64,000 bases of DNA. Source: Patescibacteria group bacterium. Its GTDB lineage: Bacteria; Patescibacteriota; JACPGU01. The DNA lies in contig JAKLDG010000001.1 in the NCBI GenBank assembly GCA_022703645.1, positions 274,814 through 338,813 on the forward strand. Reading direction: 5' to 3'. Positions 1 to 14,605 of this stretch are shown one piece after another. The translations under genes and the position numbers were made by a program. The notes under the pieces were generated by a model. It was not told where the DNA came from and did no database searches. It was given only the letters and a program-made list of their open reading frames with translations. The first letter of the stretch is position 1. Every line of letters starts with the position of its first letter.

Positions 1-1033
1 TGTCCAGTTTATTCATAAATCCAAGTGAATGTGACGAGAATATTAATTGAGCCTTTTTATTTTTATCTTCATCAATAAAATAACCAATAAGTTTATTTAA
101 AGCTTCCGGATGAAAACCAGTTTCAAGCTCGTCAATAATAACAACATTATTATTTTTCAATGCACTTAGGATATTTGCCATTACAAAGAATAATGATTTA
201 GTGCCTCTCGATTCATATCCAAAATCCAGTTTGTTATTTTCTGTTTTAGTAGAGTGAACGCCTTGTACGGTTATAGAGAATCCCTTTTCTCTGACATCTT
301 CTTTGATTTCAAAACTATTTAACCCAATATCAAAATGGCGAATAAAATTTTCTACTTCTTTTTTTAGTTCAGAATCACTTAAATAAACCTTAAGTGCATC
401 AATTTGATGCATAACATGATTTATTTCGCCTCTTTCATTAATGTTGGTTTTAAATCCTAAGAAATAATCATAAACACTGTTTATGATATCAACGCTATAA
501 GTAGATTTCTTTATAAAGGCTATAAAAGAAACATCCTCTCTTATTTTTGGAAGAGCACTTATAGAAATATTCTTAAAATAATTTTCATTTAACGAATCTA
601 TAGTGCTTAATTGGCGCGAGAATATTTTTATTTTTTTTGAACCCGCTTGGATTGCTTTTATGTATAGGGATTCTTTTGTGATAATGTCTTTTTTTATTGA
701 GAAGTCATAAAAAAACACATTATTATTATGCTCGAATTCAACATAAAAATTTGATAACTTATCATTACCAAAAAAGGTTTTGAAGGCAATGCCTGGCATA
801 AGAGGGAATTCATCATTTATATTTCTGCATACAAAAAACTTTAGAAAACTAAAGAATCTCATGACATTTGTTTTACCCGATGCATTGCCACCAATAAAAC
901 CAGCAATCTTTGTTATTTGGTCGTCAGTCTTCGACTGATAATAGTCGTAAGTTTTTTTCTTTTTCGCTAGAAAACTAATTTCTTGCTCCTTGTTGAAGGA
1001 ATAAAAATTACTAAACTTTACCTTTCTTATCAT
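1..1033 (-). CDS. AAA-family ATPase (AAA_15/AAA_21-like), 3' end beyond window
   Basis: Minus-strand translation from ATG at 1031-1033 gives MIRKVKFSNFYSF...IGGNASGKTN (Walker A GxNxSGKT), later ...VIIDELETGFHPEA (Walker B-like DE plus HP). The reading frame stays open to the window edge. Confidence 0.5.
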   Translation of the reverse strand, partial: MIRKVKFSNFYSFNKEQEISFLAKKKKTYDYYQSKTDDQITKIAGFIGGNASGKTNVMRFFSFLKFFVCRNINDEFPLMPGIAFKTFFGNDKLSNFYVEFEHNNNVFFYDFSIKKDIITKESLYIKAIQAGSKKIKIFSRQLSTIDSLNENYFKNISISALPKIREDVSFIAFIKKSTYSVDIINSVYDYFLGFKTNINERGEINHVMHQIDALKVYLSDSELKKEVENFIRHFDIGLNSFEIKEDVREKGFSITVQGVHSTKTENNKLDFGYESRGTKSLFFVMANILSALKNNNVVIIDELETGFHPEALNKLIGYFIDEDKNKKAQLIFSSHSLGFMNKLD

Positions 1034-1119
1034 ATTTTTTGAGTTATTATTATTTCTCTAGCTAAGTATATCAGTGATTAAATAATAAGTCAAGTTAATA
1101 CAAAATATTGTATTAAGTC

Positions 1120-1480
1120 CTTAGATAGTCATTCATCTCACGGCTTTGCCGTGCCCCCTCTATAATATAAAAAATCAAATTCGTTTTCCCCTATATAAAA
1201 AAGCCTATCAATATTCCTTATTATAAGAAAAATATTTATTGAATTGCGTATAATGTCTCAGTATATCTGATGTTTCGCTCGATACCAAATTAGTTGAAAA
1301 TAGAAGAGCAGAAATATGGACGAACCCCGAGCCGAGGGGTGAGTCAGATATACTGTGTTAGGCGAGGGATTGATTTACTTACATTATTGAATATATATAA
1401 AAAGTAATCAAGAGCGCAGCGCCCCCTTGAGTTTCAAAAAACAAACTTCTCCTTTATTTAAGAGCTCTTTTGGGATTTTT
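1120..1480 (+). repeat. Modular island repeat, copy A (h1 hairpin 1126-1165; three-way-junction core 1250-1362; reversed AAGAGCTCTT module 1414-1480)
   Basis: Core has stem cagtatatctg/cagatatactg, CTGATGT junction, variable hairpin, AATATGG, a GAGCGA-like box and a GTGTTA tail. It is one of 10 copies. Confidence 0.85.
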
Positions 1481-1572
1481 ATTTTAATTGTTAAACAAGG
1501 ATTAATTTTACAGTTAATGTCAAATATGATAAAATGTGGAAAGAAAAAAAGAAAGGAGCGTGACCTTAACAA

Positions 1573-1958
1573 TGGATAATATGACAGCAGTTGTCTGGGC
1601 AAACAGAACGGAGAGAAGAATCTCCCAAAAAGACCTTCAGAAGATAATAAAGGATCATCTTCGCGAACTTGCGGATATGTATAACAAGTTCACGGACGCC
1701 AGTGATTTCACAAATAATGGCATGGATGTTATAGCCAAAGAAATCAGCGAACGCTTAAAAACCCTCATCGTAACAGGTGGCAACCAGATGGTGTCGGTTT
1801 CGGCGAGCGAAGATGATGTTTCAATAGCGCTCATAGAAATGAGCAAAGAAGGATTCTTCGAGGGCGGGCCGACCGGGTTTTTGGTGGTTGATGTGAAGGG
1901 AAGCCTTACGGAGTTCAAGCTGAAGACGGGAGTCAGAACGAAAACTCGATACGAATAA
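1573..1958 (+). CDS. Hypothetical protein (cassette 1; ~50% GC)
   Basis: ORF 1536..1958. An ATG at 1573 follows the RBS-like gaaaggagcg. GC is clearly higher than the flanks. It is followed by a terminator hairpin and T-run at about 1995-2025. Confidence 0.5.
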
Positions 1959-2017
1959 GTTTTCACACGCAATTCATTACACACAATGTCGAAGCTGGCC
2001 GCTGAGGTCGGCTTTTT

Positions 2018-2215
2018 TTCTTTCCCAAAAATCCCAAAAGAGCTCTAATTAAAATATAAAAAAGTTTGTTTTTGAAATTTCGCCTAATGTTTCGGTATAT
2101 CTGATGTCTAGGCTCGCTACCCAATTAAGTTGATGTAGGAAGAGCATAGATATGGGCGCAGGTTTGCGACTTAGCGAACCGTAGCCAGATATACCGTGTT
2201 ATGTGACGTCATGAA
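2018..2215 (+). repeat. Modular island repeat, copy B (forward AAGAGCTCT module 2018-2085; core 2085-2205)
   Basis: Core stem cggtatatctg/cagatataccg, CTGATGT, hairpin, GATATGG, GTGTTA. Confidence 0.85.
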
Positions 2216-2246
2216 AAATTCTTAATTCGACGATTTTAGTCGAATT

Positions 2247-2273
2247 TTAATCAGGGCAGATTTATTTTTTTAT
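2247..2273. repeat. Left 27-bp terminal inverted repeat flanking the cassette-2 methyltransferase gene
   Basis: ttaatcagggcagatttatttttttat is the exact reverse complement of 3058-3084. Confidence 0.9.
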
Positions 2274-3034
2274 TTCTTGGTTATTATGATTAAGTCGTCC
2301 TTAAAATCTAAGTAATTATTCCTTTGATGTTTTATGATGTTGGCTAAAAACTTCTTTACTTCTGTTGCAGTTGGGAGGGTGTTAGTGTTATGTATAAACC
2401 TATAGTAGTTCTTCAAATCAAAGTTTATTTTCCCGCTCAATATATCGCCCACATACATTCGCATTTTGTAGCGCTTTGTTTTTACAGAAAAGCCCTGTTT
2501 TTTATAAAAATCCGAAATATATTCCGAATAATTAAACTTTGGATACACTTGTTTTATAGCAATGTTATAGTGGTCACTTTCTTCAGGTAAGGTTAATATC
2601 AAAAGCTTACCTTTTTTCTTCAACAAGTCAGTCAGTTTTAACAACTGCTCTTGATAACTCTTTTCATCGGATGCCCAGTAATAATTCGTGTGAGAGGTAA
2701 AAATATAATCATATTTTTCATCGGTTTTTAGTTTGGATAGGGGTGCAGTGAATAGCTTTCCTATATTATTCTCGGGCGATAAAAATGTTTTCGCGTACGA
2801 CAGAGCTTTTTTGTTCGGTTCCAATAGATCGCATGAATAATCATACTCCAATCTGTCTAATATCTGTTTTGTAGTATGACCTTCGCCACATCCAATATCT
2901 AAAATCTTTCCACCTTTTATCTCTTTAACTATACCAAATACAATACCGAACCAGTCTTCGGTTAAGGCTCTGATATATATATTCTCATATACTTCTGCGA
3001 ATTGTTTTTCTCCCCAAAAATCCCATTTTGTCAT
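2270..3034 (-). CDS. Class I SAM-dependent methyltransferase (cassette 2)
   Basis: 254 aa with motif I ILDIGCGEGHTT. It is bounded by perfect 27-bp inverted repeats. Confidence 0.65.
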   Translation of the reverse strand: MTKWDFWGEKQFAEVYENIYIRALTEDWFGIVFGIVKEIKGGKILDIGCGEGHTTKQILDRLEYDYSCDLLEPNKKALSYAKTFLSPENNIGKLFTAPLSKLKTDEKYDYIFTSHTNYYWASDEKSYQEQLLKLTDLLKKKGKLLILTLPEESDHYNIAIKQVYPKFNYSEYISDFYKKQGFSVKTKRYKMRMYVGDILSGKINFDLKNYYRFIHNTNTLPTATEVKKFLANIIKHQRNNYLDFKDDLIIITKK

Positions 3035-3057
3035 AAATATATGTATTTTATTATATC

Positions 3058-3084
3058 ATAAAAAAATAAATCTGCCCTGATTAA
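3058..3084. repeat. Right 27-bp terminal inverted repeat (partner of 2247-2273)
   Basis: ataaaaaaataaatctgccctgattaa. Confidence 0.9.
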
Positions 3085-3109
3085 TTTTGCGTGAGCTACG
3101 CAAAAAAGA

Positions 3110-3441
3110 ATTTTTTATTATGTCACATAATGTCTCCGAGTATCTGATGTCTTTGATTTCCTTCAATATTACATTAAATATAAAAGGAAAGCAAAGATAT
3201 GGGTTGAGCGACGGCAGGAGCGAACCAGATACTCGGTGTTGGGCGACCCGAACGAGCTATTCACTTTATTAAATGTAAAAAGCGAGTGAGAGTGCAACGC
3301 GGTGCAAACGTCCATTTTCTTTTTCCTTTATTTATTGCTGGCTGTAACCACTCATAGTATTAGTAATTATAAGAAAATTTTGCTTCTCCATTTTTGGGCG
3401 AGGTCAGAGGGGATTCAGGGGTGAATGACCGAAGCCCAAAA
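3110..3441 (+). repeat. Modular island repeat, copy C (core 3125-3245; tail module; GGGG-loop hairpin 3392-3441)
   Basis: Core stem ccgagtatctg/cagatactcgg, a compensatory variant of copy A. The 3' module is ttttgggcgaggtcagaggggattcaggggtgaatgaccgaagcccaaaa. Confidence 0.85.
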
Positions 3442-3533
3442 TCATAAATGTTTTCAAAAAAATGTTATTTAAGGTATAATATTTGTTGAACAATAAGTTG
3501 TACCCTAAAAAACGAAAAAAGGAGGTGGTGGTT

Positions 3534-4403
3534 GTGATAAAGTTTTCCAATGGTCATGCCTTTGAATACATGACAGCAAGTGGTGCGTTGGGTTTCGACG
3601 GAAAAGGTTGGCCATGGGAAAAACCGTGGCACTGGCTCGGACTTTTTGACCCGACACTCTTTACTTCGGTAACCAAAACATTGACGCTTCAACCAAGGGA
3701 AGGAAATCTGCGGTGGTATAATCCGCTCCGATGTTTGCGGTTCGTCAGCGGTGGGGTCGTCAATGCAGTTGGTTTGTCAAATCATGGCGTTGATTGGTGG
3801 TGCAATAAGATTGGTCCATCAGTCACTTCCAAAAAAATTCCTTTGGTCGCTTCAATTTTTGGGGAACCAGAGGAATTAGTAGAAATGGCAAGAATGCTGG
3901 ACGGTTTTGACTTGGTCGGACTGGAAATCAATGCATCATGTCCGAACACTGAAACTTGCATTCTGCAAGATACTACGAGAGTAATTGCAAGTTGCGAAGC
4001 GGTCAAAACCAATTCACGCCTACCACTGATTCTGAAAGTATCAGTTACTCACGATGTTCCACGAATCACGAAAGAGGTCGAGGGTCTCATTGACGCAATT
4101 TCGATCAATAGCGTTCCTTGGTCAATGGCTTTTCCAAATCGCAGAAGCCCTCTCGAAAATCTCGGAAACGGTGGCGTATCAGGTAAAGTTGCCCAACCGT
4201 TCACGTGGGGCTTGGTCAAAAAAATTACCGAATTAACAAGTATTCCGGTAATCGGACCGAGCGTTTGGGACTTCGACGACCTCGAAAAAGTCAGAAATTT
4301 TGGTGCGAAGGCCGTCAGTTTTGGTTCTGTCTTTCTGTATCGTCCGTGGAGTCCGACGCTGTATGTTCGGAAAGAACAAAAATTCAAACGATTAAGGGTA
4401 TAG
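3534..4403 (+). CDS. Dihydroorotate dehydrogenase-family TIM-barrel flavoprotein (PyrD-like; cassette 3)
   Basis: NAVGLSNHGVDWW and LEINASCPN, the class-1 DHOD active-site Cys motif. The likely start is GTG at 3534 after GGAGGTG; the ORF track began at an upstream TTG. GC is about 47%. A terminator sits at 4404-4440. Confidence 0.55.
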   Translation: MIKFSNGHAFEYMTASGALGFDGKGWPWEKPWHWLGLFDPTLFTSVTKTLTLQPREGNLRWYNPLRCLRFVSGGVVNAVGLSNHGVDWWCNKIGPSVTSKKIPLVASIFGEPEELVEMARMLDGFDLVGLEINASCPNTETCILQDTTRVIASCEAVKTNSRLPLILKVSVTHDVPRITKEVEGLIDAISINSVPWSMAFPNRRSPLENLGNGGVSGKVAQPFTWGLVKKITELTSIPVIGPSVWDFDDLEKVRNFGAKAVSFGSVFLYRPWSPTLYVRKEQKFKRLRV

Positions 4404-4446
4404 TGGCACCCTGTCATAAATGACGAAGCCACTTTTTATTTTCCCC

Positions 4447-4834
4447 TTAAATAGTCCTTCATCTCACAGCTTTGCTGTGCCCCCTATAAATAAAATAAAA
4501 AAGCAAAATTTTCCCTTTGTTAGAAGAAAATAAATATTCAGTCATCACAAACCTTGCCAGCAAAATATAAGAAAAGAAAATGTATGTCGCCCAATGTTTC
4601 CGAGTATCTGATGTTGCTGATTATTTCTACCTTTATTTTATTATATAAAAGAAAAATCAGCAATATGGGTTGAGGGGCGAGCCGAGCCCCGAACCAGATA
4701 CTCGGTGTTAGGCGAGGGTTCATTTCCCCTTCATTATTAGATTAAATATAAAAGGGGGAATGAAAGCGCAGCGCCCCCTTGAGTTTCAAAAAACAAACGT
4801 CACCTCTATCTAAGAGCTCTTTTGGGATTTTTTG
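4447..4834 (+). repeat. Modular island repeat, copy D (h1 hairpin 4450-4493; core 4592-4712; reversed AAGAGCTCTT module 4766-4834)
   Basis: Core stem ccgagtatctg/cagatactcgg. Its internal hairpin is ttgctgattatttct...agaaaaatcagcaa. Confidence 0.85.
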
Positions 4835-4860
4835 GCTCTGGCGAATTGACCAAAAAAAGC

Positions 4861-4889
4861 TTGACAGAGCCACAAATATGTGATACAAT
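4861..4889 (+). promoter_or_regulatory. Sigma70-like promoter for cassette 4 (TTGACA-17-TACAAT)
   Basis: ttgacagagccacaaatatgtgatacaat lies upstream of an AAGGAGG RBS. Confidence 0.6.
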
Positions 4890-4939
4890 GATTATGTAAA
4901 AAATTTAATGCCCGAGTGGCATATAAGGAGGAAAGGACA

Positions 4940-5218
4940 TTGAAAACAAAGAAAGAGTTAATCGAAGAGAAAAGCGACGGTGTGTTCGGCGCTATGACAG
5001 GTCTGGTGCAGTTTGCTTCGCTGGTAAGTGATGAGGAATTCGCACTGCTGTGCGATAACATTCCCAGCGGCGAACATCTCTGGCTGGACTTCAAGAAGTA
5101 CCGCGACTCAAAGTTTGAAGGTTTCGGTATGTTGCACTATTTTCTTGGCAAGCTGGTAAAAGTCAAGCCAGAGATAGCCACGAAACTCGGGTTCGATCCC
5201 GAAACGGTTGCTCTTTAG
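4940..5218 (+). CDS. Hypothetical small protein (cassette 4; ~50% GC)
   Basis: ORF 4916..5218. TTG at 4940 is 7 nt after aaggaggaaagg. It is followed by a terminator. Confidence 0.4.
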   Translation: MKTKKELIEEKSDGVFGAMTGLVQFASLVSDEEFALLCDNIPSGEHLWLDFKKYRDSKFEGFGMLHYFLGKLVKVKPEIATKLGFDPETVAL

Positions 5219-5299
5219 TTCACACTGTACACGTCTGCGGTACAGCAATAAAACTCCGCGCTGAAATGTTCTTCGGAACAAATCGGCCACGGAGTTTTT

Positions 5300-5672
5300 T
5301 TCTTTCCCAAAAATCCCAAAAGAGCTCTAATTAAAATATAAAAAAGTTTGTTTTTTGAAATTTCGCCTAATGTTTCGGTATATCTGATGTTTCAGCTCGA
5401 TACCAAATTAGTTGATAAAAGAAGAGCAGAAATATGGACCGAGCGAGGGCACGAGCGAGTCAGATATACTGTGTTACCCGACCCGAGCATTTCTTTCATC
5501 TTTATTATATGTAAAAGAATGCGAGAGTGCAACGGGGCAAGCCCCCCCAAGGGCGCAGCGTGTATCTTTCGCTCATTGTTATTAGATTGAACACTTAAAA
5601 GAGATTCAAAACAGAATTATTCCATTTTTGGGCGAGGTCAGAGGGGCAGGGGTGAATGACCGAAGCCCAAAA
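5300..5672 (+). repeat. Modular island repeat, copy E (forward AAGAGCTCT module 5300-5368; core 5368-5478; tail; GGGG-loop hairpin 5626-5672)
   Basis: The most complete copy. The core is near-identical to copies G and H. Confidence 0.85.
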
Positions 5673-5685
5673 CCTTAAATGAATT

Positions 5686-6333
5686 TTATTTTTTCTGTCC
5701 GAAGTTAAGTTTGCGAATTACATTGAAATGCATACTTTCGTCAGGAACAATATAAACAAGACCATCGCATAAAAATTCTCCTGCGCTTGTTTTATCTTCC
5801 AATTCTTTCAATAAATCTGCGGTTTCTTCTTTCGAAATGAATTCTGCAATCGTCATGTGCGGGTTGAACGGAAATCTTCTTGGAACAGCTTCTGAAAATA
5901 ATGAAGCGCTTTCAATTTTTTCTCGTACTGCGTTTAGTTCGGTTTGATTTTCCAAAGGGAAAGCAACTCCTGGGTATGGTGGGTAATCCTTGGGTTTGCC
6001 ATAATTAATTTCGAAAGGTTTAATTTCAGAAGCAATGTTCTGCAATTCCTGCCAATCTTCTTCGGTTAATGGTTTGGGTACGGGCACCGAAATACTAATA
6101 TGTGTATCACAACTAGCCTGCGATTTAGGATCATACTTCGAGCGAAGGGAATTGACCAATGAAAGCACCGGTTCAGGCGGCATGATTAAAATGAGTCCAT
6201 AACGATATTCTTTTTCCCAATTTTCCCAATTATCAACATTTGAAACATATTCAGTAATCGGTTTATTTTTTTCAATTTGTTCATGCGCTGGGGTTGAATC
6301 GTTTTTATTCTCTGGCCAATTTTTTTCTGTCAT
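5686..6333 (-). CDS. 2H phosphoesterase (LigT/2',5'-RNA ligase-like; cassette 5)
   Basis: Two H-x-(T/S)-x motifs (CDTHISI and NPHMTI) about 80 aa apart. The N-terminus MTEKNWPE shares the MT..WP leader with cassettes 7 and 8. Confidence 0.55.
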   Translation of the reverse strand: MTEKNWPENKNDSTPAHEQIEKNKPITEYVSNVDNWENWEKEYRYGLILIMPPEPVLSLVNSLRSKYDPKSQASCDTHISISVPVPKPLTEEDWQELQNIASEIKPFEINYGKPKDYPPYPGVAFPLENQTELNAVREKIESASLFSEAVPRRFPFNPHMTIAEFISKEETADLLKELEDKTSAGEFLCDGLVYIVPDESMHFNVIRKLNFGQKK

Positions 6334-6344
6334 ATAATTATTTT

Positions 6345-6794
6345 TATTAATAAATAGTCCTTCAACTCGTAGCTTTGCTACGCCCCTCTTAAATATAAAA
6401 ATTCTGTTTTAATTTTGTTCAGGCTCAGCACAAACATTTAGAAACAAAAAAGAAAGATACATGTCTGGGTAATGTATGCGTATATCTGATGTTTTTGACT
6501 TGCTTCAATGTTAAATTAAATATAGAAAAAAGTCAAAAATATGGACGAGCGACAGCCGGAGCGAGTCAGATATACGCTGTTCTACGACCCGAAGCCCGAT
6601 ATTCAATATTTATTATATGTAAAATCGGGGTGAGAGTGCAACGCGGGCGTCAGCCGTACATTTTCTTTTTCATTATTATTTATTGCTGGCTGTAACCACT
6701 CAGAGTATTAGTTATTAAATGAAAATTTTGCTTCTCCATTTTTTGGGCGAAGGTCAGAGGGGAATTAAAGGGGTGAATGACCTGAGCCCAAAAT
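6345..6794 (+). repeat. Modular island repeat, copy F (h1 variant hairpin 6352-6388; core 6470-6585; tail; GGGG-loop hairpin 6741-6794)
   Basis: h1 is ctcgtagctttgctacg, a compensatory variant of cacggctttgccgtg. Core stem is gcgtatatctg/cagatatacgc. Confidence 0.85.
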
Positions 6795-6876
6795 CCCTTA
6801 ATGAATTTTGGACAAAAAAATATGCCCGGATTACCGCCGGGCGCGGGATCGTTTACAGAACGGAGAGCACAAGGTT

Positions 6877-7203
6877 TCATTTGTGCTCTTGATCAAAAAA
6901 ATCTTCGAAGTCTTTCAGGGTTTTGCGAAGCTTGGATTTTTTTGGTAAGGACTTTTTGCCGTGGGTTTCAATCTCGATTCTCACCGGAACTTCAAATCCT
7001 TTGGTTTTTTCCGTGAAAAACATCGTCCCACTTGTGCCGACAACATCAGCATCCACTTCTCTCAAGAAATCTCTGTTAAATAAAATGGGATGTCTTTTGC
7101 CTTTTGCATCTCCGAGAGAAACTCTGACACTGTGGGGGAGGACTTCGATAACAAGAAAGGGATATCCCTTTTGTTCTTCTGTGCTGAGGGCAGTTTTTTT
7201 CAT
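6877..7203 (-). CDS. Hypothetical protein, 108 aa (cassette 6)
   Basis: ORF only. I could not support a family assignment. Confidence 0.35.
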   Translation of the reverse strand: MKKTALSTEEQKGYPFLVIEVLPHSVRVSLGDAKGKRHPILFNRDFLREVDADVVGTSGTMFFTEKTKGFEVPVRIEIETHGKKSLPKKSKLRKTLKDFEDFFDQEHK

Positions 7204-7317
7204 AATTCAGATTCCTCGCTTCCTTTGGTTTTTTTGATATGTTAAGGTATTTCAATAATACCACAAATGTTTGGATTTGTCAATGGCTTTTTGGCACAAC
7301 AGAGCTAAAAAACCAAA

Positions 7318-7752
7318 TTAAATAGTCCTTCATCTCACGGCTTTGCCGTGCCCCCTCTATAATCAAATAAAAAAGCAAAATTTTCCCTTTGTTAGAAAAG
7401 AATAAATATTCAGTCATCACAAACCTTGCCAGCAAAATATAAGAAAAGAAAATGTATGTCGTAGAATGTCTCAGTATATCTGATGTTTCGCTCGATACCA
7501 AATTAGTTGATAAAAGAAGAGCAGAAATATGGACCGAGCGAGGGCACGAGCGAGTCAGATATACTGTGTTACCCGACCCGAGCATTTCTTTCATCTTTAT
7601 TATATGTAAAAGAATGCGAGAGTGCAACGGGGCGAAGCGTGTATCTTTCTGACTATTGATATTAGAATTAACACTTAAAAGAGAACAAAACAGAATTATT
7701 CCATTTTTGGGCGAGGTCAGAGGGGCAGGGGTGAATGACCGAAGCCCAAAAC
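7318..7752 (+). repeat. Modular island repeat, copy G (h1 hairpin 7322-7366; core 7465-7575; tail; GGGG-loop hairpin 7704-7752)
   Basis: The X-type upstream module is near-identical to 4447-4600. The core is near-identical to copy E. Confidence 0.85.
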
Positions 7753-7753
7753 C

Positions 7754-8602
7754 TTATTTAAAATATTGTGGCACCATCCCTACTTCGGCTAATTTGTTAC
7801 ATTCTATTTCCCACGATTCTTTTTCTTTTTTTGCCATTTCTAAACCCTCCCATAAATCGCTTTTAGAATCTGTGTACAAAAAATTTCTATAAATATTCGA
7901 AAAGGTTGTATGGCGAAAAGATTTTTCTCCATAGGCAACATCTCCTTGATTATCTAAAAATATTTTTTCAATATTATCAACCATCGCGTTCAAACAATGC
8001 AAGAATTCTTGTAGAAAATAAAAAGCATTTCCCATTTTGATTCTTAACTTTTGTTGATAGTCATCAAAATATTCCGGATTAAATGGTCTTGATAGAAATT
8101 GAAAGCAATCCTCCACGCCTTTTGCATCATTTGCAATTCTATCGTAAATTTTTTTTCTAAAATTCGCATCTGATTCATTCTTGGGATCACGATTTTTATC
8201 AATTATTAAAATCGCATCATTAATAATTGGTTCAACATTTTTAACAAAGTAATTTTTAGCCTCGCGCCACTTACCTTCTAATTCTTCTCTTAGTTTTGGA
8301 AATTCCGTTACTTTTATAAATCTAATGTCTTTAGAAGGGGATATGTTAAAGGTAGGATTCTTTATTATAACATCTATTGGTGGAAGCATCCTTGTTAATT
8401 CGTCAATCTTTTCACCTATTTTCTCATCACTAAATTCATTTTTATATTTTTCTAAAAATTTTTCTATATTTTTTATGGTTTTCTCTATAAATTCACTTTT
8501 TTCTGCTCTTTTTTCGACCACATTAATATTATCAACTTTGGGTTGTTCTTCTTTTAGTGGGTTAGTGTTGTCGCCTGTCGGCCATTTTATTGGATCTGTC
8601 AT
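7754..8602 (-). CDS. Hypothetical protein (cassette 7) with the shared MTDPIKWP N-terminal leader
   Basis: ORF 7754..8635 from an upstream TTG inside the repeat module. The ATG at 8602 gives MTDPIKWPTGDNTNP, followed by a Pro/Glu/Lys-rich region. Confidence 0.45.
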   Translation of the reverse strand: MTDPIKWPTGDNTNPLKEEQPKVDNINVVEKRAEKSEFIEKTIKNIEKFLEKYKNEFSDEKIGEKIDELTRMLPPIDVIIKNPTFNISPSKDIRFIKVTEFPKLREELEGKWREAKNYFVKNVEPIINDAILIIDKNRDPKNESDANFRKKIYDRIANDAKGVEDCFQFLSRPFNPEYFDDYQQKLRIKMGNAFYFLQEFLHCLNAMVDNIEKIFLDNQGDVAYGEKSFRHTTFSNIYRNFLYTDSKSDLWEGLEMAKKEKESWEIECNKLAEVGMVPQYFK

Positions 8603-8619
8603 AAGTTTATTTTTTATTA

Positions 8620-9044
8620 ATAAATAGTCCTTCAACTCGTAGCTTTGCTACGCCCCTTTTAAATATAAGAATTCTGTTTTGATTTTATTCAGGTTCAGCA
8701 TAAACATTTAGAAGAAAAAAAGAAAGATACATGTCTGGGTAATGTTTCAGTATATCTGATGTTTCAGCTCGCCACCTTATTCACTTGATAGAGAAAGAGC
8801 AGAAATATGGACCGAGCGAGGGCACGAGCGAGTCAGATATACTGTGTTACCCGACCCGAGCCCTGATACCTTATTTATTATATGCAAAGAAGGGCGAGAG
8901 TGCAACGGGGCAAGCCCCTCAAGGGCGAAGCGTGTATCTTTCTGTTCATTGTTATTAGATTTAATACTTAGAAGAGATTCAAAACAGAATTATTCAATTT
9001 TTGGGCGAGGTCAGAGGGGCAGGGGTGAATGACTGAAGCCCAAA
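8620..9044 (+). repeat. Modular island repeat, copy H (h1 variant 8624-8662; core 8740-8852; tail; GGGG-loop hairpin 8997-9044)
   Basis: Same architecture as copy F and copy E. Confidence 0.85.
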
Positions 9045-9055
9045 ACCTTGATAAT

Positions 9056-9931
9056 TTAATCCTTCTTTTTTGTAAATAAATGCACTGCATTTGGACCAGC
9101 AACACCAAAAATACCTTCATGATGTGTTTTATAACCAGATAGATCAAGAGATTGATGAAGTATAATGCATCCTTCTGGGCTTAGTACTCTATCAATTTCT
9201 TTATTTATAGCCTTAACATATTCTGGGTCTGCATCGTGCATTACACAATCGTCTATACCTGAAGCGTAAATACTAACCGAGTCATCAGGAAGTCTTCTTA
9301 AAAAGGAAAGCATATCTTCATCAGCTACTGAGGCAGGAATCCCGTGAAAATATTCTATCTTCCCTTGTGTATAGTTGCTATTCGTATTGATCAGTTCTGA
9401 TAGTGAGTTCTTTAATTCTGATTTACTTTTGTCTAATGTCTCACTAAGTTGGGAAGAGAAAAATTTATCTACACCGACATATGATTTTGCTCCCAATATG
9501 TCAAGGATGTAGTACGCATCTCTACCGCTCATACCGGCTCCTAGGTCAATTACTATTTGGTTTTTGAGATGTTCCAGCGTAGTCGCAAAGGTTGTGTTTT
9601 GTTCGTTTACTCCTGCATTACGATTTTTAAATTTTTCAATAAGCTCTCCCTCTGTCAAATCCGGATTTGCATTTTTTAAATTAACAAAAAATTTCAAAGG
9701 ATTAATCATCCATCTGAATGCACTATCAGAAAAAGATTGTGGAAGATCGTATCCAGTTTTTTTAAATTCTTTACCAATATCAGTGTTCTGTTCTTTTTCT
9801 TTGATTCCGGGAACTAGCTCTTCAACTGGTCTTAAAATACTTTCTTCTGATTCTTTTTCTACAGTGTTTTCAACTTCAATTTTTGGCTTAGGTGGTTCTG
9901 TATTTGGGTTTGGCCATTTTGGGTCTGTCAT
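9056..9931 (-). CDS. Class I SAM-dependent methyltransferase-like protein (cassette 8) with the shared MTDPKWP leader
   Basis: VIDLGAGMSGRDAYYIL is a motif-I-like sequence. The ATG at 9931 gives MTDPKWPNPNTEPP; the ORF track started at an upstream TTG inside the repeat. Confidence 0.5.
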   Translation of the reverse strand: MTDPKWPNPNTEPPKPKIEVENTVEKESEESILRPVEELVPGIKEKEQNTDIGKEFKKTGYDLPQSFSDSAFRWMINPLKFFVNLKNANPDLTEGELIEKFKNRNAGVNEQNTTFATTLEHLKNQIVIDLGAGMSGRDAYYILDILGAKSYVGVDKFFSSQLSETLDKSKSELKNSLSELINTNSNYTQGKIEYFHGIPASVADEDMLSFLRRLPDDSVSIYASGIDDCVMHDADPEYVKAINKEIDRVLSPEGCIILHQSLDLSGYKTHHEGIFGVAGPNAVHLFTKKKD

Positions 9932-9944
9932 AGATTTATTTTTT

Positions 9945-10310
9945 ACTATTAAATAGTCCTTCAACTCGTAGCTTTGCTACGCCCCTCTTAAATATAAAGA
10001 ATTCTGTTTTGAATTTCGTTAAGCTCAGTACAAGCGTTTAGAAGTAAAAAAGAAAGATACATGTTGGGTAATGTCTCATAGTATCTGATGTTGCTGATTA
10101 TTTCTACCTTGATTATATTATACAGAAGAAAAATCAGCAATATGGGTTGAGGGGCGAGCCGAGCCCCGAACCAGATACTATGTGTTAGGCGAGGGTTCAT
10201 TTCCCCTTCATTATTAGATTAAATATAAAAAGGAAATGAAAGCGCAGCGCCCCCTTGAGTTTCAAAAAACAAACTTCACCTCTATTTAAGAGCTCTTTTG
10301 GGATTTTTTG
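9945..10310 (+). repeat. Modular island repeat, copy I (h1 variant 9948-9986; core 10070-10190; reversed AAGAGCTCTT module 10240-10310)
   Basis: Core stem catagtatctg/cagatactatg, another compensatory variant. Confidence 0.85.
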
Positions 10311-10318
10311 GCTACCTA

Positions 10319-10347
10319 TTGACATTTTTTGGGAAATATGATAAGAT
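10319..10347 (+). promoter_or_regulatory. Sigma70-like promoter for cassette 9 (TTGACA-17-TAAGAT)
   Basis: ttgacattttttgggaaatatgataagat upstream of an aaaggag RBS. Confidence 0.5.
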
Positions 10348-10397
10348 TAATTATCGGTTTTTGCGGATATATAATCCAATAGAAAGGAGTAAAATCG

Positions 10398-10790
10398 ATG
10401 ATCTTTAAGAACTTACAATTGGAAACAGGCGACTTTGTTGCGTTTCAAACAGAGGCTGTTCCGCTTCCGGAAGTTCAGGCGGCTGTCATCGGTATTGAGG
10501 ATGGCGTACTCGAAGTCATGAGTACCTTGCTCGCACCATTCCAGCACAACGGGAAATTTACAGAAGACGAGGTAGGCCAAATCATGGTCGTCTATCCATC
10601 AGCGATTGCCATTCCTCGGGAGTCTCGAGGCAAAAACTTCTCTAAACACCAAGGTGTATCCGTCATCATCAAGGGCGGAGAGGAACATCGGGGTGAAGTT
10701 GTTGCTGCGTTCGACGGTATCGTCGTGGCACGCAGAAGCGATGGTGAGCTGATCACCGGCGGAGCTTCGCATTTCAATGCTGTTGCCTAA
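10398..10790 (+). CDS. Hypothetical protein, 130 aa (cassette 9; ~50% GC)
   Basis: ATG with RBS. GC is well above the flanks. A terminator follows at about 10815-10846. Confidence 0.5.
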   Translation: MIFKNLQLETGDFVAFQTEAVPLPEVQAAVIGIEDGVLEVMSTLLAPFQHNGKFTEDEVGQIMVVYPSAIAIPRESRGKNFSKHQGVSVIIKGGEEHRGEVVAAFDGIVVARRSDGELITGGASHFNAVA

Positions 10791-10842
10791 GAATCGACAG
10801 CAAGTCCTGCTAATTGAGCGCACGACCTACGGGTACGGCGCT

Positions 10843-11135
10843 TTTTTCTTCCCTAAAAATCCCAAAAGAGCTCTAATTAAAATATAAAAAAGTTTGTTTT
10901 TTGAAATTTCGCCTAACGTTTCGGCATATCTGATGTTTGCCGTAGCGTAGCGAAGGCAAATATGGGTGGAGGCTTTTGTATAAAAGCCGTAACCAGATAT
11001 GCCGTGTTATGTGATGTGCATGTTTTACTTTAATCCTGATAGCAATCGGGATTGCTCTAAAAAAGAATTTTAATTTTGTTTTTTTGTTTTGGATTTTGGG
11101 CAGAGGGGTTAGGGGTGAATGCCCAAAATCCAAAA
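10843..11135 (+). repeat. Modular island repeat, copy J (forward AAGAGCTCT module 10843-10918; core 10915-11012; GGGG-loop hairpin 11089-11129)
   Basis: Core stem cggcatatctg/cagatatgccg. The perfect hairpin is ggattttgggc-agaggggttaggggtgaa-tgcccaaaatcc. Confidence 0.85.
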
Positions 11136-11139
11136 CTCC

Positions 11140-11547
11140 TTATTCTGCTAATAATTTAAACACTAAGCTAAATATTTTTGGTGAAAAATCTTTATAAATT
11201 AACTCTCTCGTCTCGTCCTCACCAAATGACCAAAATTTACCATTAATTTCTAAACCAGTAGGATAATGACTCTCGTGAAATAATTTATTTCTTATTTCTC
11301 TTAAAGATTCTAAAAATTTAAGTTCCGCGTCATCAATTAAATCCTTTTCTTTAGCTTCTGTAATTATTCTATGAAAATTGCCGTCAATTTTATTGACAGA
11401 AAATTTTATAATCTGTTCTGACAAAACAAATAGACAAGCAAGCGCAGAAAAGTAATTTTCTTGTTCATAAGAATTTTGTGCCTCGAAACATAATTTCCCA
11501 AAAATATGGTCTCTTTCATTTATTTTTGCAATTATATCGGTATTCAT
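11140..11547 (-). CDS. Hypothetical protein, 135 aa, co-oriented with and abutting the C5-methyltransferase gene
   Basis: ORF only. Its stop is 2 nt from the methyltransferase start. Confidence 0.4.
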   Translation of the reverse strand: MNTDIIAKINERDHIFGKLCFEAQNSYEQENYFSALACLFVLSEQIIKFSVNKIDGNFHRIITEAKEKDLIDDAELKFLESLREIRNKLFHESHYPTGLEINGKFWSFGEDETRELIYKDFSPKIFSLVFKLLAE

Positions 11548-11549
11548 GT

Positions 11550-12527
11550 TTATTTCAAATCAGCCATTATTTTTTTTGCTAAATGGTGGGCAAAATTTAC
11601 TGCGACAGCATTTCCAATCATTTTATATCCGTCGGCAATATCACGATATTTAAAAATAAAATTATCAGGGAATGTTTGAATCCTTGCACATTCACGAACA
11701 GACAAGCGACGATATAAATGTTCTTTTCCGGGAACAAAAATTCTTTTATTTTGACTGATAAATTTCATTTTCGGAGCTTGGGGATGAATTGGAGCATGGC
11801 GACCACCGGCTTGAATGGTAAAAGAAGGTTCATCCCATGAGCGAACACGATTTCGCGACATATAAATTGAAGAAAAACCGCCATTCATGTATTCGTGATT
11901 TGGAATTTTTAACACATCGCCATTTGTCTTATTTTTATCTAACGCAGGTTTTGCTAAACGCAAATCATAAATAGCGTCTTTCAATACTGGTTTATATTTT
12001 TGCGGTTCTGGAAATTCAAATTTTTTCTTTAGTTTTTTATTATATCCAACAATAATGACACGCAATCTATCTTCAGGAACATCATAATCATTTGCATTTA
12101 ATAATTTGCAGGAAATTTCATATCCAGCATTTTCAAATTCTTTTATTATATTTGAAAAAGCCTCTTTGTGTTTAGGGTGAAGAATACCCGATACATTTTC
12201 TGCAAGAAAAAATTTTGGTTGTTTTTCCTTTAATAAACGAATGTAATCATAAAATAATTTTCCTCTTTTATCATTTATTCCACGTCCAGCCCCAGCCTCG
12301 CTCCAACTTTGACAAGGTGGTCCGCCAATGATTCCGTCAACATCGGGAATTTCAGAAGCAGGGACGTCGACAATACTTCTTTTATCAAGTTTTGTTTTTG
12401 GAAAATTGTGTTCAAAAGTTTCCCAAATTGTGGGGTCATATTCATTTGCCCAGACGACATGAAAACCAGCTTTTTCAAAGCCTAAATCAAGTCCTCCTGC
12501 ACCTGTAAACAATGAAGCTATTTTCAT
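11550..12527 (-). CDS. DNA (cytosine-5)-methyltransferase
   Basis: Motif I FTGAGGLDLGF, motif IV GGPPCQSWS, ENV. Confidence 0.9.
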   Translation of the reverse strand: MKIASLFTGAGGLDLGFEKAGFHVVWANEYDPTIWETFEHNFPKTKLDKRSIVDVPASEIPDVDGIIGGPPCQSWSEAGAGRGINDKRGKLFYDYIRLLKEKQPKFFLAENVSGILHPKHKEAFSNIIKEFENAGYEISCKLLNANDYDVPEDRLRVIIVGYNKKLKKKFEFPEPQKYKPVLKDAIYDLRLAKPALDKNKTNGDVLKIPNHEYMNGGFSSIYMSRNRVRSWDEPSFTIQAGGRHAPIHPQAPKMKFISQNKRIFVPGKEHLYRRLSVRECARIQTFPDNFIFKYRDIADGYKMIGNAVAVNFAHHLAKKIMADLK

Positions 12528-12529
12528 AA

Positions 12530-13534
12530 TTATTCGTGACTAATATTTAGTGTGTTTTTAAATAATTTTTTCGGCGATTTCAAAAGATTTATATCAAATT
12601 TCAAAGACGATTCAACCCTAGAACTTGCATTATGAATACGAAAAGAAAGAGTCCAATCATTATTCATGGTTACTATTGCCGTTGTTTGGCTATCGGTTTT
12701 GAAACAAATATCAACAATTTCTGTTGGCAATGGAACTTTTGGTGTTTTGTATTTTGGAAGAATGTCGTTAAAAGGCAAATTTAATGTTCCATTCAAATTG
12801 TATGCGTGTATTTCTACACTATTTTTGCCTTTAATAACTTTGTAAAAATCTTTATTTCCAACGAGGTATGCAACTAGATTAGACGCTACTTTTTTAGAAT
12901 CTTTTTTGTATAGATTTTTCAGTTCTTTAATAAAGGCTTTTAAAATTGGAATATAGATTGATGAATGATAATCACCAAGCTCACTCCACTTTTTCTTTGC
13001 ACCGCTTTCTTTTCTAATTTTCTCTAAATTGTTAAAAATAGGTGTTACTGTTTCAAAATATTCTTTTGATGTTTTTATTCCAAGCCACTTTTCACCAAAA
13101 TCAATATTTGAAGATAGTCGGGAATGCTTTACTGCATGATGATTGTTTTTGGCCGATACTCCAATTTCCCATTTTTGCAACAAACGAATTGCTAAAACAT
13201 CTCTAACATCGCCTGATTTTCCATGTTGATCGGATAAAATTTCAAGTTGCAGAATATCATCTTTACCAACATCATTTGTGAGGCGTGGCTCTATATCCAT
13301 TAGAAAATTAACCGCAAAACTAGCGGTGAGTAAATAATCACTTTTTTCTGTTTCGCTCACATTTTCAAAACATCCTTTTGCAATTTCAAAAGAAGAATTT
13401 TTGATAACTTCAAGATTTGTTTTATCTTTCAATTTTTCTTCAAATTGAACAAGTAAAGCATATTCAAAAGATTTTCCAGTTGTCATTTGTCTTGATGCAG
13501 TAGTAGTCATATTTTTATTATTACATTTTTCCAT
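12530..13534 (-). CDS. Putative cognate Type II restriction endonuclease
   Basis: 334-aa ORF directly upstream of and co-oriented with the C5-methyltransferase gene. I recognise no motif, so the call rests on context only. Confidence 0.35.
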   Translation of the reverse strand: MEKCNNKNMTTTASRQMTTGKSFEYALLVQFEEKLKDKTNLEVIKNSSFEIAKGCFENVSETEKSDYLLTASFAVNFLMDIEPRLTNDVGKDDILQLEILSDQHGKSGDVRDVLAIRLLQKWEIGVSAKNNHHAVKHSRLSSNIDFGEKWLGIKTSKEYFETVTPIFNNLEKIRKESGAKKKWSELGDYHSSIYIPILKAFIKELKNLYKKDSKKVASNLVAYLVGNKDFYKVIKGKNSVEIHAYNLNGTLNLPFNDILPKYKTPKVPLPTEIVDICFKTDSQTTAIVTMNNDWTLSFRIHNASSRVESSLKFDINLLKSPKKLFKNTLNISHE

Positions 13535-13662
13535 TTAAAAATAAATCGTTTTCGTAGCGGAGCGGAGAAAACACCTTATACCCCTTTCTAATTAATAAAA
13601 AACAAAATTTAAATTCTTTTTTAGAGCTGGGCGATAGCCCAAAAGTAAAACATGCATTTCAC

Positions 13663-13709
13663 ATAACTCGTTTTTATCTGAATATATTTCAGATAAAAAC
13701 GAGTTACGG
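13663..13709. promoter_or_regulatory. Perfect 19-bp-arm palindrome in the divergent region between the REase and recombinase genes
   Basis: taactcgtttttatctgaa-tatat-ttcagataaaaacgagtta. It contains the ATCTGA/TCAGAT boxes also present in the repeat cores. Confidence 0.5.
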
Positions 13710-13783
13710 TAGTTTATGCGGTTATTGTGTACATTCTTCAACATCTTTGATATTATCGATTTAATATTATCATTTTTTATTAT

Positions 13784-14605
13784 ATGCAACAATACTTAGA
13801 TAGATTGTCGCAGGAATTACGATTAAGAAATTATAGTAACAGCACGGTCGAAAGTTACCTGACGTGCGTGAAATATTATTTTTATTTTGTGGAAAGAAAT
13901 GGCGCAAGAATTGAAGATGGTGATCAGGATATTCTCAAATCATTTCTTCTTGATAAACATAACAAAGGGTCCTCATCACAAACGATCAATCTTTATCTCA
14001 ATGCGATAAAGTTTTTTTATCGGGAAATCATGAAATCACCACAAAGTATCGATATTAGATTTGCCAAGAAATCAAATAAGCTGCCGGTAGTCCTCTCGCA
14101 TGATGAGATTGAAAGAATTATTGAAGTAACAAAAAATTCAAAGCATCGGCTCATTATTTCGCTGAGCTATGGCGCAGGGTTGAGAGTGAGCGAAATCATA
14201 AGTTTAAAAGTTAAAGACTTGGATTTGGATAGCTTAACGATTCACCTAAAAAATGCGAAGGGGAAAAAGGACAGAATTACGGTTTTGCCGGTAAAATTAG
14301 TTAATTCTTTGCGCAATGCGGTTGCGGGCAAGGATATTGATGATCTGGTTTTTGAAAGCGAGAGAGGCGGGGGATTGACCGATCGGACTGCACAGGTCAT
14401 TTTCAACAATGGGTTGAGGAGAGCGGGAATCAAAAAAGAAGCGACATTCCACTCGCTTCGCCATTCGTTCGCTACACATCTGCTTGAAAACGGTACAGAC
14501 ATTCGTTACATTCAAGAATTGCTTGGACATCAAAATATTCGAACGACTCAAATTTATACAAAAGTGACAAACCCGGCGGTACGCAATATAAAAAGCCCGC
14601 TGTAA
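13784..14605 (+). CDS. Tyrosine site-specific recombinase (XerC/D-like phage-integrase family)
   Basis: AGLRVSE (catalytic Arg), HSLRHSFATHLL (H-x-x-R), LGHQNIRTTQIYTKV (nucleophilic Tyr). At 273 aa it is shorter than classical IntI. Confidence 0.85.
   Translation: MQQYLDRLSQELRLRNYSNSTVESYLTCVKYYFYFVERNGARIEDGDQDILKSFLLDKHNKGSSSQTINLYLNAIKFFYREIMKSPQSIDIRFAKKSNKLPVVLSHDEIERIIEVTKNSKHRLIISLSYGAGLRVSEIISLKVKDLDLDSLTIHLKNAKGKKDRITVLPVKLVNSLRNAVAGKDIDDLVFESERGGGLTDRTAQVIFNNGLRRAGIKKEATFHSLRHSFATHLLENGTDIRYIQELLGHQNIRTTQIYTKVTNPAVRNIKSPL

Follow-up and report, generated by a model that had tools for sequence, protein, structure and literature searches.

Sedentary chromosomal integrons, such as the Vibrio cholerae superintegron with its VCR attC sites, hold long arrays of gene cassettes in one orientation that are served by a chromosomal tyrosine recombinase and its attI site. 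Integrons are defined by an integrase with an extra domain and by attC sites that are recognised by one covariance model. Archaeal integrons have been described as cassette arrays in metagenome-assembled genomes (MAGs) of uncultured, often ultra-small lineages from habitats of the groundwater type; according to this description, their IntIs keep the IntI-specific additional domain, and standard attC models detect their sites (Ghaly et al., 2022, PMC9668308). In a 2026 survey, 97.4% of the contigs with 'integron-type' recombinases were without a complete integron as determined by IntegronFinder, and novel attC sites were proposed as one explanation (PMC13323075). We found no description of integrons, attC sites or such arrays in Patescibacteria (Candidate Phyla Radiation, CPR) in the literature searched. 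Here, we analysed a stretch of 64,000 nucleotides (the window) from a Patescibacteria group bacterium (assembly GCA_022703645.1, contig JAKLDG010000001.1, positions 274,814 to 338,813), in which an array of unrelated genes and structured repeats is followed by a tyrosine recombinase gene. The locus is most likely a gene-cassette array of the integron type that is located on the chromosome and has a non-canonical integrase and attC sites of a new class, and it displays the full integron layout without the extra domain of the integrase.

Ten copies of a structured core were identified between positions 1244 and 11016, throughout on the + strand and interleaved with unrelated genes (Table 1). A covariance model built from the copies in the window and in the databases scored these ten cores at 80-101 bits (E 3e-23 to 4.5e-18) and found no further core in the 64 kb at E<=1. 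The 11-mer RTATCTGATGT occurred exactly ten times in the window, every time on the + strand and within the array; allowing one mismatch gave 13 matches compared to 1.95 expected by chance, and 13 were reached in none of 100 shuffles. A first-pass annotation of the window, made from the letters alone, had already described ten repeats of the same orientation between unrelated genes, and its counts of four ORFs (open reading frames) on the plus and six on the minus strand were reproduced. The varying base composition of the cassettes that it had noted was also found (ORF GC 27.5-50.6%, window 36.7%), as were the restriction-modification (R-M) genes, the tyrosine recombinase and the RAYT-like gene downstream, the last as a weak match. 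The repeat, which had been given as 200-450 bp long, is modular as stated, but is a composite of a core of about 110 nt and of leader and trailer modules that are common to subsets of the cassettes; the intergenic gaps in the array measure 311-550 bp.

The extent of the array had initially been set at 1034-11135. This region belongs to it, but the array goes further on both sides: in other assemblies the same contig (locus L121; loci used for comparison carry L numbers) provides 8.4 kb more to the left of the window with five further cores, and the R-M module to the right is itself a cassette, as discussed below. In total, the array comprises at least 16 sites over at least 21 kb and reaches at least 8.4 kb beyond the left end of the window, the count being a lower bound. 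An inverted repeat of 26 nt (1028-1053 and 15124-15149) was considered as the boundary of an island and rejected; as the array runs on to the left of 1028, the repeat was taken as chance. Identity to the window is 99.98-100% in the remaining assemblies of this genome (L120-L122, L132), which end at a perfect repeat of 144 nt and therefore yield no polymorphism data; L121 and L122 end at about 5520-5544 of the window, at this repeat within the array. Many metagenome contigs start 70-300 nt upstream of the recombinase gene (L138, L143, L144, L159, L182, L187, L200). Because the repeats break assemblies at the array, such arrays are under-represented in MAGs, where they are probably truncated systematically.

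On the + strand, the 5' part of the core consists of a variable NNNN, AAC, G-TYT, an arm of 10-12 nt ending in TATCTGA, TG and a hairpin (P2). The 3' part consists of ATATGG, a second hairpin (P3), the complementary arm starting with (T/C)CAGATA, T, GTT and again a variable NNNN. The left foot reads AAT in nine of the ten window cores, and the length between the feet ranges from 78 to 135 nt. Folding of the single strand resulted in a three-way junction with a Y-shaped tip. Compensatory changes were present in 10 of the 20 predicted pairs already among the window copies. In an alignment of 150 cores from many genomes, which was fitted to the model, 96.7% of the cells paired compared to 75.7% in shuffled controls and 26-52% with slid partners, and compensatory double changes occurred in 18 of the 20 pairs, including all ten of the L stem. 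The feet are near-invariant in these cores (AAC 147/148/134, GTT 146/147/148). Divergent L boxes occur, e.g., GCGGATAAAAG in L141. Between the R and L boxes, the folding strand carries a conserved 4-by-1 asymmetric loop (G-T-T-T opposite T), a possible counterpart of the extrahelical bases that set strand choice in attC sites. Among the non-Watson-Crick cells, 79 were G.T and 24 A.C, and one additional pair was near-invariantly G.T; the excess of G.T over A.C indicates that the + strand is the folding strand. In four of four cores tested, the + strand folded at least as well as the - strand. Beyond its structure, the core sequence itself is nearly identical across distant CPR lineages and much more conserved than is usual for attC sites. 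The first-pass annotation had seen no resemblance of the repeats to attC. This view was not upheld, as AAC…GTT feet, R and L boxes, an unpaired spacer, a variable tip and pairing between the flanks of neighbouring cores are all present.

The last of these features concerns the cassette ends. In the window, the right flank of each core matched the reverse complement of the left flank of the next core at 5-7 of 8 positions, e.g., GTTATGTGAC (2199) with GTCACATAAT (3121), or GTTCTACGAC (6575) with GTCGTAGAAT (7447). Across genomes, the flanks of consecutive cores matched at 4.57 of 6 positions on average compared to 3.16 after shuffling (maximum 3.87 in 1000 shuffles), and the two flanks of one and the same core matched at chance level (3.1 of 6). 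We attribute the pairing between neighbours to the successive insertion of circular cassettes with one complete site each, which is a hallmark of integrons. The right flank of core 10 pairs in the same way with the attI-like site in front of the recombinase gene, indicating that the HaeIII-type R-M module, which is bounded by these two elements, is also a cassette.

The first-pass annotation had suggested comparing cassette content between relatives, with junctions at defined points in the repeat as the prediction of site-specific recombination, and such junctions were seen in two pairs of platforms. L135 and L136 are 98.8% identical and L139 and L146 92% identical across the platform, the upstream cassettes are unrelated within each pair, and the point of divergence is exactly NNNN|AAC-TCGTTTTTAT. 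In addition, seven of ten homologies between loci start no more than 12 nt from the left edge of a core and extend through the core into the next gene, and one stops 10 nt into the next core, indicating that the core belongs with the DNA to its right. Judged from these sequences, the unit would therefore be [C-G…core…GTT-NNNN…gene(s)…NNNN-AA]. Such a cassette begins with the C or T of the AAC/AAT foot, comprises a core of about 110 nt and one to three genes, and ends with ATTTC-NNNN-AA before the next core. An initial assignment of the crossover to the right-hand GTT, with + as the top strand, was dropped; the crossover was placed at the left-hand AAC because the attI junction, the platform comparisons and the homologies between loci agree on this position. 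At c1, the cassette boundary would thus lie at AA|T (1253/1254). Read from the recombinase side, i.e., on the minus strand, the order is intI, attI and [gene - attC] repeated, which is the ordinary order of an integron. By analogy, the folding + strand would correspond to the 'bottom' strand of a classical attC site, and AA|C to the position that is cleaved there.

At the attI-like site, the end of a cassette (ATTTC-ACAT-AA) is joined to C-TCGTTTTTATCTGA…, which in the window forms a perfect palindrome with arms of 19 bp. The consensus of this junction upstream of the recombinase genes is ATTTC-NNNN-AAC-TCGTTT(T/C)TAT(A/G)CGAA…TTGCATATTATACGAAC…TATAAT; a strict pattern match was obtained in 34 of 49 loci, and most of the others are visibly similar. 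At this site, a cassette end is joined to a platform that carries TTATACGAA twice in direct orientation, together with a promoter-like sequence of the recombinase gene. Most relatives have AAC-TCGTTTTTATACGAA followed by the second, direct TTATACGAA repeat, and the palindrome occurs in the window and in L130. A match of the Rfam family 23S-methyl to the attI hairpin (E 0.05) was sub-threshold and regarded as chance-level. A version with a single cassette was observed in L126 (9310-9460 and 9800-10003), in which the far site is reduced to AAC-ATCAGG-GTT without a hairpin; pairing between the right flank of this far site (ATAC) and the cassette end at attI (GTAT) is nevertheless retained, and the site may be the residue of the original insertion site.

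To determine how cores and recombinase genes are distributed in other genomes, two sets of loci were analysed. Scanning one genome of each species with a sequence pattern gave 119 stretches; the full core, including flanking motifs outside the scan pattern, is present in about 75 of them. The covariance model detected 158 copies in 100 of the 119 loci, often as arrays of the same orientation, e.g., in L080 (the complete Peribacteria genome CP060226), L011, L022, L031, L054 and L094. The genomes with cores are nearly all MAGs labelled Patescibacteria, the phylum to which RpoB also assigns the window, and no true cores were found in those genomes of cultured isolates that matched the loose pattern. 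Fourteen of the 119 loci also contain a recombinase homologue of the same length (37-60% identity), and all 14 share one geometry, with the cores directed at the gene and transcription of the gene leading away from the array. The second set was blind to the cores and consisted of 80 metagenome loci selected solely by similarity of the recombinase (60-75% identity). All 63 cores found in these loci share the strand of the recombinase gene and are situated upstream of it, whereas a comparable amount of downstream DNA contained none; among the 46 loci that offer 700 nt or more of upstream sequence, 35 had at least one core. Exact-protein look-ups of five further homologues identified cores upstream in three of four testable places, among housekeeping genes. 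Orientation was uniform within each array (222 cores in 115 loci, none mixed), with a median core spacing of 1028 bp. The system is most likely widespread in Patescibacteria.

The orientation of the cassette genes had been described as independent of that of the repeats. This does not hold across the family: in 71 segments between cores of non-redundant loci, the longest ORF was opposite to the + orientation of the core in 63 and in the same orientation in seven, with none in one segment, and four of these seven come from the window. Several core-bearing loci are labelled Gammaproteobacteria, Pseudomonadales, Alteromonas or DPANN archaea (L073, L011, L013, L035, L056 and, for DPANN, L032, L095 and L112). 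The Ddl gene of L073 is 85% identical to a Patescibacteria protein, which shows that its gammaproteobacterial label is wrong, and the other labels outside the phylum may result from mis-binning or from a real spread across phyla. A scan of viral contigs gave 24 pattern matches with one true core and thus no sign of carriage of cores by phages.

The recombinase consists of a SAM-like N-terminal domain and a tyrosine-recombinase catalytic domain. Its best NCBIfam model was the integron integrase model TIGR02249, which reached 223.5 bits (cutoff 265) in two stretches; PRK15417 also matched in two stretches and scored 156 (cutoff 435). XerA_Arch narrowly missed its cutoff (214.8, cutoff 220), and the remaining Xer models likewise stayed below theirs (XerC 184, cutoff 335; XerD 180, cutoff 330; XerS 63, cutoff 267). 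The best match in the PDB was VchIntIA (2a3v), and in this alignment residues 182-202 of the query (21 amino acids, aa) are opposite residues 183-246 of the chain (64 aa). The 21 aa in place of 64 and the split matches to the IntI models indicate that the IntI-specific extra domain (about 35-40 aa, near patch III) is missing. In VchIntIA, this domain contacts the flipped-out bases of attC. The catalytic R, K, H-x-x-R, H and Y align with those of VchIntIA (GLRVSE, KGKKDR, HSLRHSFATHLL, LGHQNIRTTQIYT) and do not vary among 33 homologues. Throughout the homologues at 37-100% identity, the length is about 262-273 aa, and the family is very large, with source names of XerD or 'tyrosine recombinase/integron integrase'. 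In a predicted structure, only the N-terminal domain was confident (mean pLDDT, predicted local distance difference test, of 66.9 overall and about 55 in the catalytic domain), and nothing was concluded from it. As the recombinase fails the protein definition of integrons, the array was not filed as a canonical integron. The first-pass annotation did not recognise the repeat family, and in this it was right: Rfam gave no matching family, the recombinase falls outside the definition of integron integrases, and no paper on such arrays in CPR bacteria was found.

Taken by layout and junction logic, the locus would work like a sedentary chromosomal integron. In the proposed reaction, the + strand of the core would fold when single-stranded and form an R box (NNNNAAC with GTTNNNN), the 4-by-1 unpaired spacer, an L box of 10-12 bp (TATCTGA/TCAGATA) and the two tip hairpins. 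The recombinase of 273 aa would bind the R and L boxes and cut at AA|C, and the cut strand would be exchanged with attI (AAC|TCGTTTTTAT.CGAA) or with another folded core. Replication would then resolve the product, so that circular cassettes enter the array at attI or leave it by excision, and expression would come largely from promoters carried by the cassettes. The single-stranded substrate, the exact bond cleaved, the replicative resolution and the role of this recombinase as the enzyme are inferred; the array, the covarying fold, the pairing of cassette ends, the fixed geometry towards the recombinase gene, the position of the junction and the different cassettes on near-identical platforms are observed.

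A comparison with sedentary integrons showed extensive agreement. The catalytic residues, the attC architecture, the cassette logic and the geometry of attI and array with variable cassettes are those of integrons. Both have long arrays in one orientation next to a chromosomal tyrosine recombinase and attI, sites with a length (here 89-135 nt) in the attC range of 57-141 nt and with AAC…GTT feet, R and L boxes, unpaired spacer and variable tip, high similarity of the sites within an array, and a cassette start that pairs with its own site. Cassettes of about 0.4-3.5 kb with mostly hypothetical and defence genes, some with promoters of their own, and folding of what would be called the bottom strand are further common features. 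Signs of cassette mobility are the R-M part of the attI-proximal cassette, which has a counterpart of 92.9% identity in a cassette of another MAG (L102), and the spread of ORF GC content given above. In contrast to sedentary integrons, however, the recombinase is without the IntI-specific domain and does not reach the cutoffs of the curated IntI models, the L box has a greater length (10-12 bp) and a conserved sequence (TATCTGA), the cleaved arm has its unpaired bases between R box and L box, and the tip is a conserved two-hairpin junction with a fixed ATATGG. Moreover, leader and trailer modules lengthen the repeat to 200-450 bp, promoterless cassettes under a common promoter (Pc) were not seen, and the host belongs to the Patescibacteria. 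The archaeal integrons resemble the locus in that they form arrays in MAGs of comparable lineages, but they differ by the additional domain that is absent here, and a search of supplementary text of the respective paper (PMC9668308) did not reveal the core motif.

Several observations weigh against an integron-type array. First of all, the recombinase has no counterpart of the domain of about 40 aa that defines integron integrases. Four of the ten genes of the window array are reversed, a consensus scan of the window did not find a Pc-like promoter facing the array at attI, and cassettes often have promoter-like sites of their own. The pair counts from the 150 cores come from the fitted alignment mentioned above. 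Conserved modules of about 100-200 nt at the cassette ends extend beyond the core and are unexplained. Neither an excised circle nor gain or loss of internal cassettes between strains was seen, and the assemblies compared break at the repeats. Finally, mosaic cores are not predicted by a simple exchange of one strand at AA|C. In c5, the left arm resembles that of c2 and the remainder is identical to c7 for 144 nt, which suggests recombination between cores away from the AAC foot; either homologous recombination of near-identical cores or a second strand exchange 7-8 nt from AA|C would explain such mosaics. Mosaic cores with mismatched stem arms were also observed in L002, L035, L037, L047, L068, L093 and L110.

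An alternative explanation starts from the recombinase, which might be the single Xer-type dimer resolvase of the cell, in the style of XerA, XerS or XerH. The attI-like site would then be dif, and the cassettes would be small integrative elements that hijack Xer recombination and accumulate at dif, as do integrative mobile elements exploiting Xer (IMEX) of the CTX/TLC type or pdif modules. We regard this explanation as unlikely, although the score of the XerA equivalog almost equals that of the IntI model, the family is very large with proteins of 270-273 aa that are often named XerD, the gene has a conserved chromosomal setting among housekeeping genes, and the site beside it is a perfect palindrome in the window and in L130. 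In most relatives, however, this site is without the inverted arms of 11 bp that are typical of dif and has the direct TTATACGAA repeats instead. The replication gene dnaA is located 6 kb from the recombinase gene in one relative (L125:16741-18105) and dnaB 8 kb from it in another (L130:309-1700), and the skew of the window is without a reversal of the terminus type, the GC skew being positive all along its right side. The locus may tend to sit nearer to the origin than to the terminus. The cassette sites are folded structures of about 110 nt with binding arms 70-100 nt apart and not duplexes of 28-31 bp, and all point in one direction, whereas pdif sites alternate. The explanation is partly compatible with an integron-type array, as a single enzyme might serve both purposes without any change in the mechanics of the cassettes.

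The described systems of this kind agree with the locus only in part. When CTX phage integrates at dif1, the Xer recombinase acts on a hairpin of single-stranded DNA, one strand is exchanged, replication completes the reaction, and tandem copies accumulate. A folded single-strand substrate and a recombinase of the Xer family would, by analogy, be shared by these elements and the system proposed here. Elements of the CTX type, however, are phages or other large elements and not cassettes of 1 kb, use the dif site at the terminus together with XerC and XerD, and do not form long arrays of dozens of units with a common structured site. The pdif modules of Acinetobacter are similar in that small modules of accessory genes are bounded by recombinase sites and are probably moved by Xer-type enzymes; their sites are duplexes of 28 bp, alternating and on plasmids, compared to the folded sites of about 110 nt in one orientation on the chromosome next to a recombinase gene.

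The first-pass annotation had offered three options: a cassette system serviced by a recombinase, an array of small-RNA genes between acquired genes, and an island rich in miniature inverted-repeat transposable elements (MITEs). Support was obtained for the first and not for the other two. An array of small or cis-regulatory RNAs that are read from the + strand and alternate with acquired genes, with the structure serving the RNA, would equally account for the strong covariation and for the bias of G.T over A.C on the + strand. We nevertheless consider it very improbable, as no Rfam family matched the 64 kb at gathering score or the cores at E<=1, most cassette genes are on the opposite strand, and an RNA function explains neither why flanks pair between neighbouring cores instead of within one core, nor why 63 of 63 cores lie upstream of one recombinase gene on its strand, nor why cassettes switch exactly at the AAC foot on near-identical platforms. 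Least probable of all is a MITE or REP (repetitive extragenic palindrome)-like family that is spread by the neighbouring RAYT-like Y1 or another transposase and dense in a variable island; the RAYT-like gene that immediately follows the recombinase gene (52.7 bits, with a cutoff of 80) and a Y1_Tnp gene within the L125 array speak in its favour, but it was rejected on the distribution and orientation of the cores, none of which occurs outside the array in 64 kb and which are uniformly oriented in 115 of 115 loci, and, in addition, there are no terminal inverted repeats or target duplications but the pairing rule of cassette ends, no RAYT homologue was found in the 119 genome loci selected for carrying cores, and the cores are three-way junctions of 90-135 nt compared to REP hairpins of 20-40 nt. 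The RAYT-like gene begins 20 nt downstream of the recombinase gene and has probably been inserted independently.

We slightly favour the further view that these loci form a large integron class, hitherto unrecognised and native to Patescibacteria/CPR, whose integrase would perform the folded-DNA reaction without the IntI domain and whose Y-shaped sites may escape the current attC models. A distinct, highly conserved type of site recurs in dozens of uncultured Patescibacteria genomes, and the covariance model of the core is a concrete candidate for searching for the novel attC sites proposed by the 2026 survey (PMC13323075). Such a class would explain part of the integron-type recombinases in metagenomes that are without detectable attC sites. 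It would bear on the origin of integron integrases from Xer-like enzymes and on the need of an extra domain for recombining folded DNA, as it would represent either a separate path along which an integron arose from Xer or a form near the ancestor of the integron integrases. Furthermore, it would provide the ultra-small, host-dependent CPR bacteria with a dedicated platform for gene capture, with cassettes that include AbiL-like and HaeIII-type R-M genes.

The features of the locus are listed in Table 1. For most of the gene identities given previously, a family match was obtained (AAA ATPase, dihydroorotate-dehydrogenase-like flavoprotein, 2H/LigT-like phosphoesterase and one methyltransferase), but a second SAM methyltransferase, proposed for 9056-9964, was not recovered by Pfam at E<=0.01, and most of the remaining cassette genes are hypothetical.

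Table 1. Cores, cassette genes and recombinase-associated features of the array (CM, score of the covariance model; c1 to c10, cores in the order of the window; SAM in the methyltransferase row, S-adenosylmethionine).
Feature	Positions	Strand	Evidence
AbiLi-like AAA ATPase, 5' part	1-1033	-	Pfam AAA_21 2.6e-25; also AAA_15
Core c1, attC-like	1244-1367	+	CM 89.5 bits; fold; flank pairing
Cassette ORF, 128 aa, GC 45%, reversed relative to the family norm	1572-1958	+	no family match
Core c2	2078-2208	+	CM 86.7 bits
SAM-dependent methyltransferase, cassette ORF	2270-3034	-	Methyltransf_25 2.4e-8
Core c3	3121-3248	+	CM 94.9 bits; DNA fold z = -5.6
Dihydroorotate-dehydrogenase-like flavoprotein, reversed, GC 46%	3483-4403	+	DHO_dh 3.9e-18
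Core c4	4585-4717	+	CM 88.3 bits
Cassette ORF, 100 aa, reversed, GC 47.5%	4916-5218	+	
Core c5, mosaic	5361-5483	+	CM 98.2 bits
2H (LigT-like) phosphoesterase	5686-6333	-	2_5_RNA_ligase2 2.3e-17
Core c6	6463-6589	+	CM 83.1 bits
Two cassette ORFs, 108 aa and 66 aa, 4-nt overlap	6680-7203	-	no Pfam or PADLOC match
Core c7	7457-7578	+	CM 96.3 bits
Cassette ORF, 282 aa from ATG at 8602	7754-8635	-	no family match
Core c8	8733-8856	+	CM 92.2 bits
Cassette ORF, 291 aa from ATG at 9931	9056-9964	-	no Pfam match at E<=0.01
Core c9	10062-10194	+	CM 80.4 bits
Cassette ORF, 130 aa, reversed, GC 50.6%	10398-10790	+	promoter-like site 10319-10347
Core c10	10907-11016	+	CM 100.7 bits
attI-proximal cassette: 135-aa ORF, C5 cytosine methylase, HaeIII-type restriction enzyme	11140-13534	-	Pfam DNA_methylase 8.6e-98, RE_HaeIII 4.8e-97
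attI-like site	13655-13712	+	junction conserved upstream of the homologues of the recombinase gene
Tyrosine recombinase, 273 aa, IntI-related	13784-14605	+	
RAYT-like Y1 (HUH) transposase gene	14625-15152	+	REP_Tyr_transpos 52.7 bits, cutoff 80

The ATPase gene at the left end of the window sits in a cassette that starts further to the left and is flanked by a core at L121:6656 and by c1. The full gene (L121:8281-9462) gave a PADLOC match to AbiLi (7.5e-66), and a partner gene of 160 aa was observed within the same cassette (L121:7794-9462); the two likely represent an abortive-infection pair of the AbiL type that is carried as a cassette. The overlapping ORFs between c6 and c7 have a layout similar to that of toxin-antitoxin genes. 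Core c10 is the commonest sequence type in other genomes, with near-identical copies in many MAGs.

Strong promoter-like sites, all of them consensus matches only, were found within cassettes at 1507, 4861, 7283 and 10319. The first (1507-1535) and the second (TTGACA-17-TACAAT, 4861-4889) precede the reversed ORFs of 128 and 100 aa, respectively. For the former ORF, a GTG start at 1536 was considered, but a look-up gave nothing, and the ATG at 1572 is the called start. The four reversed genes of the window are the GC-rich ones (45-51%), each with a strong promoter-like site.

Two further modules recur at the cassette ends. A nested hairpin (TTTTGGGC…GGTCA…TGACC…GCCCAAAA), which was also observed in L102, occurs at 3387-3450, 5621-5681, 6737-6802, 7700-7760, 8994-9054 and 11110-11144. 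It is located just beyond the stop codon of a minus-strand gene at five of the six sites and upstream of a plus-strand gene instead at 3387-3450, and is not a canonical terminator on either strand. The leader module, a small covarying hairpin (CACGGCAAAGCCGTG or CGTAGCAAAGCTACG) followed by GAAGGACTATTTA, is positioned on the start-codon side of minus-strand genes (1121-1192, 4447-4518, 6350-6421, 7318-7389, 8620-8691 and 9949-10020), in four of six copies directly before a called minus-strand ORF. Three of the genes behind this module (starts 6333, 8602 and 9931) have a common N-terminus, MT(D/E)x(1-3)(K/N)WP. In addition, three of the GC-rich reversed cassettes share both ends (1461-1481/2024-2046, 4813-4835/5306-5328 and 10289-10311/10852-10874). 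These ends are inverted repeats of each other of about 50 nt (AGAGCTCTTTTGGGATTTTT … CCCAAAAATCCCAAAAGAGCTCT), which occur only in assemblies of this genome, and the identical flanks around unrelated ORFs possibly reflect cassette genesis or inversion.

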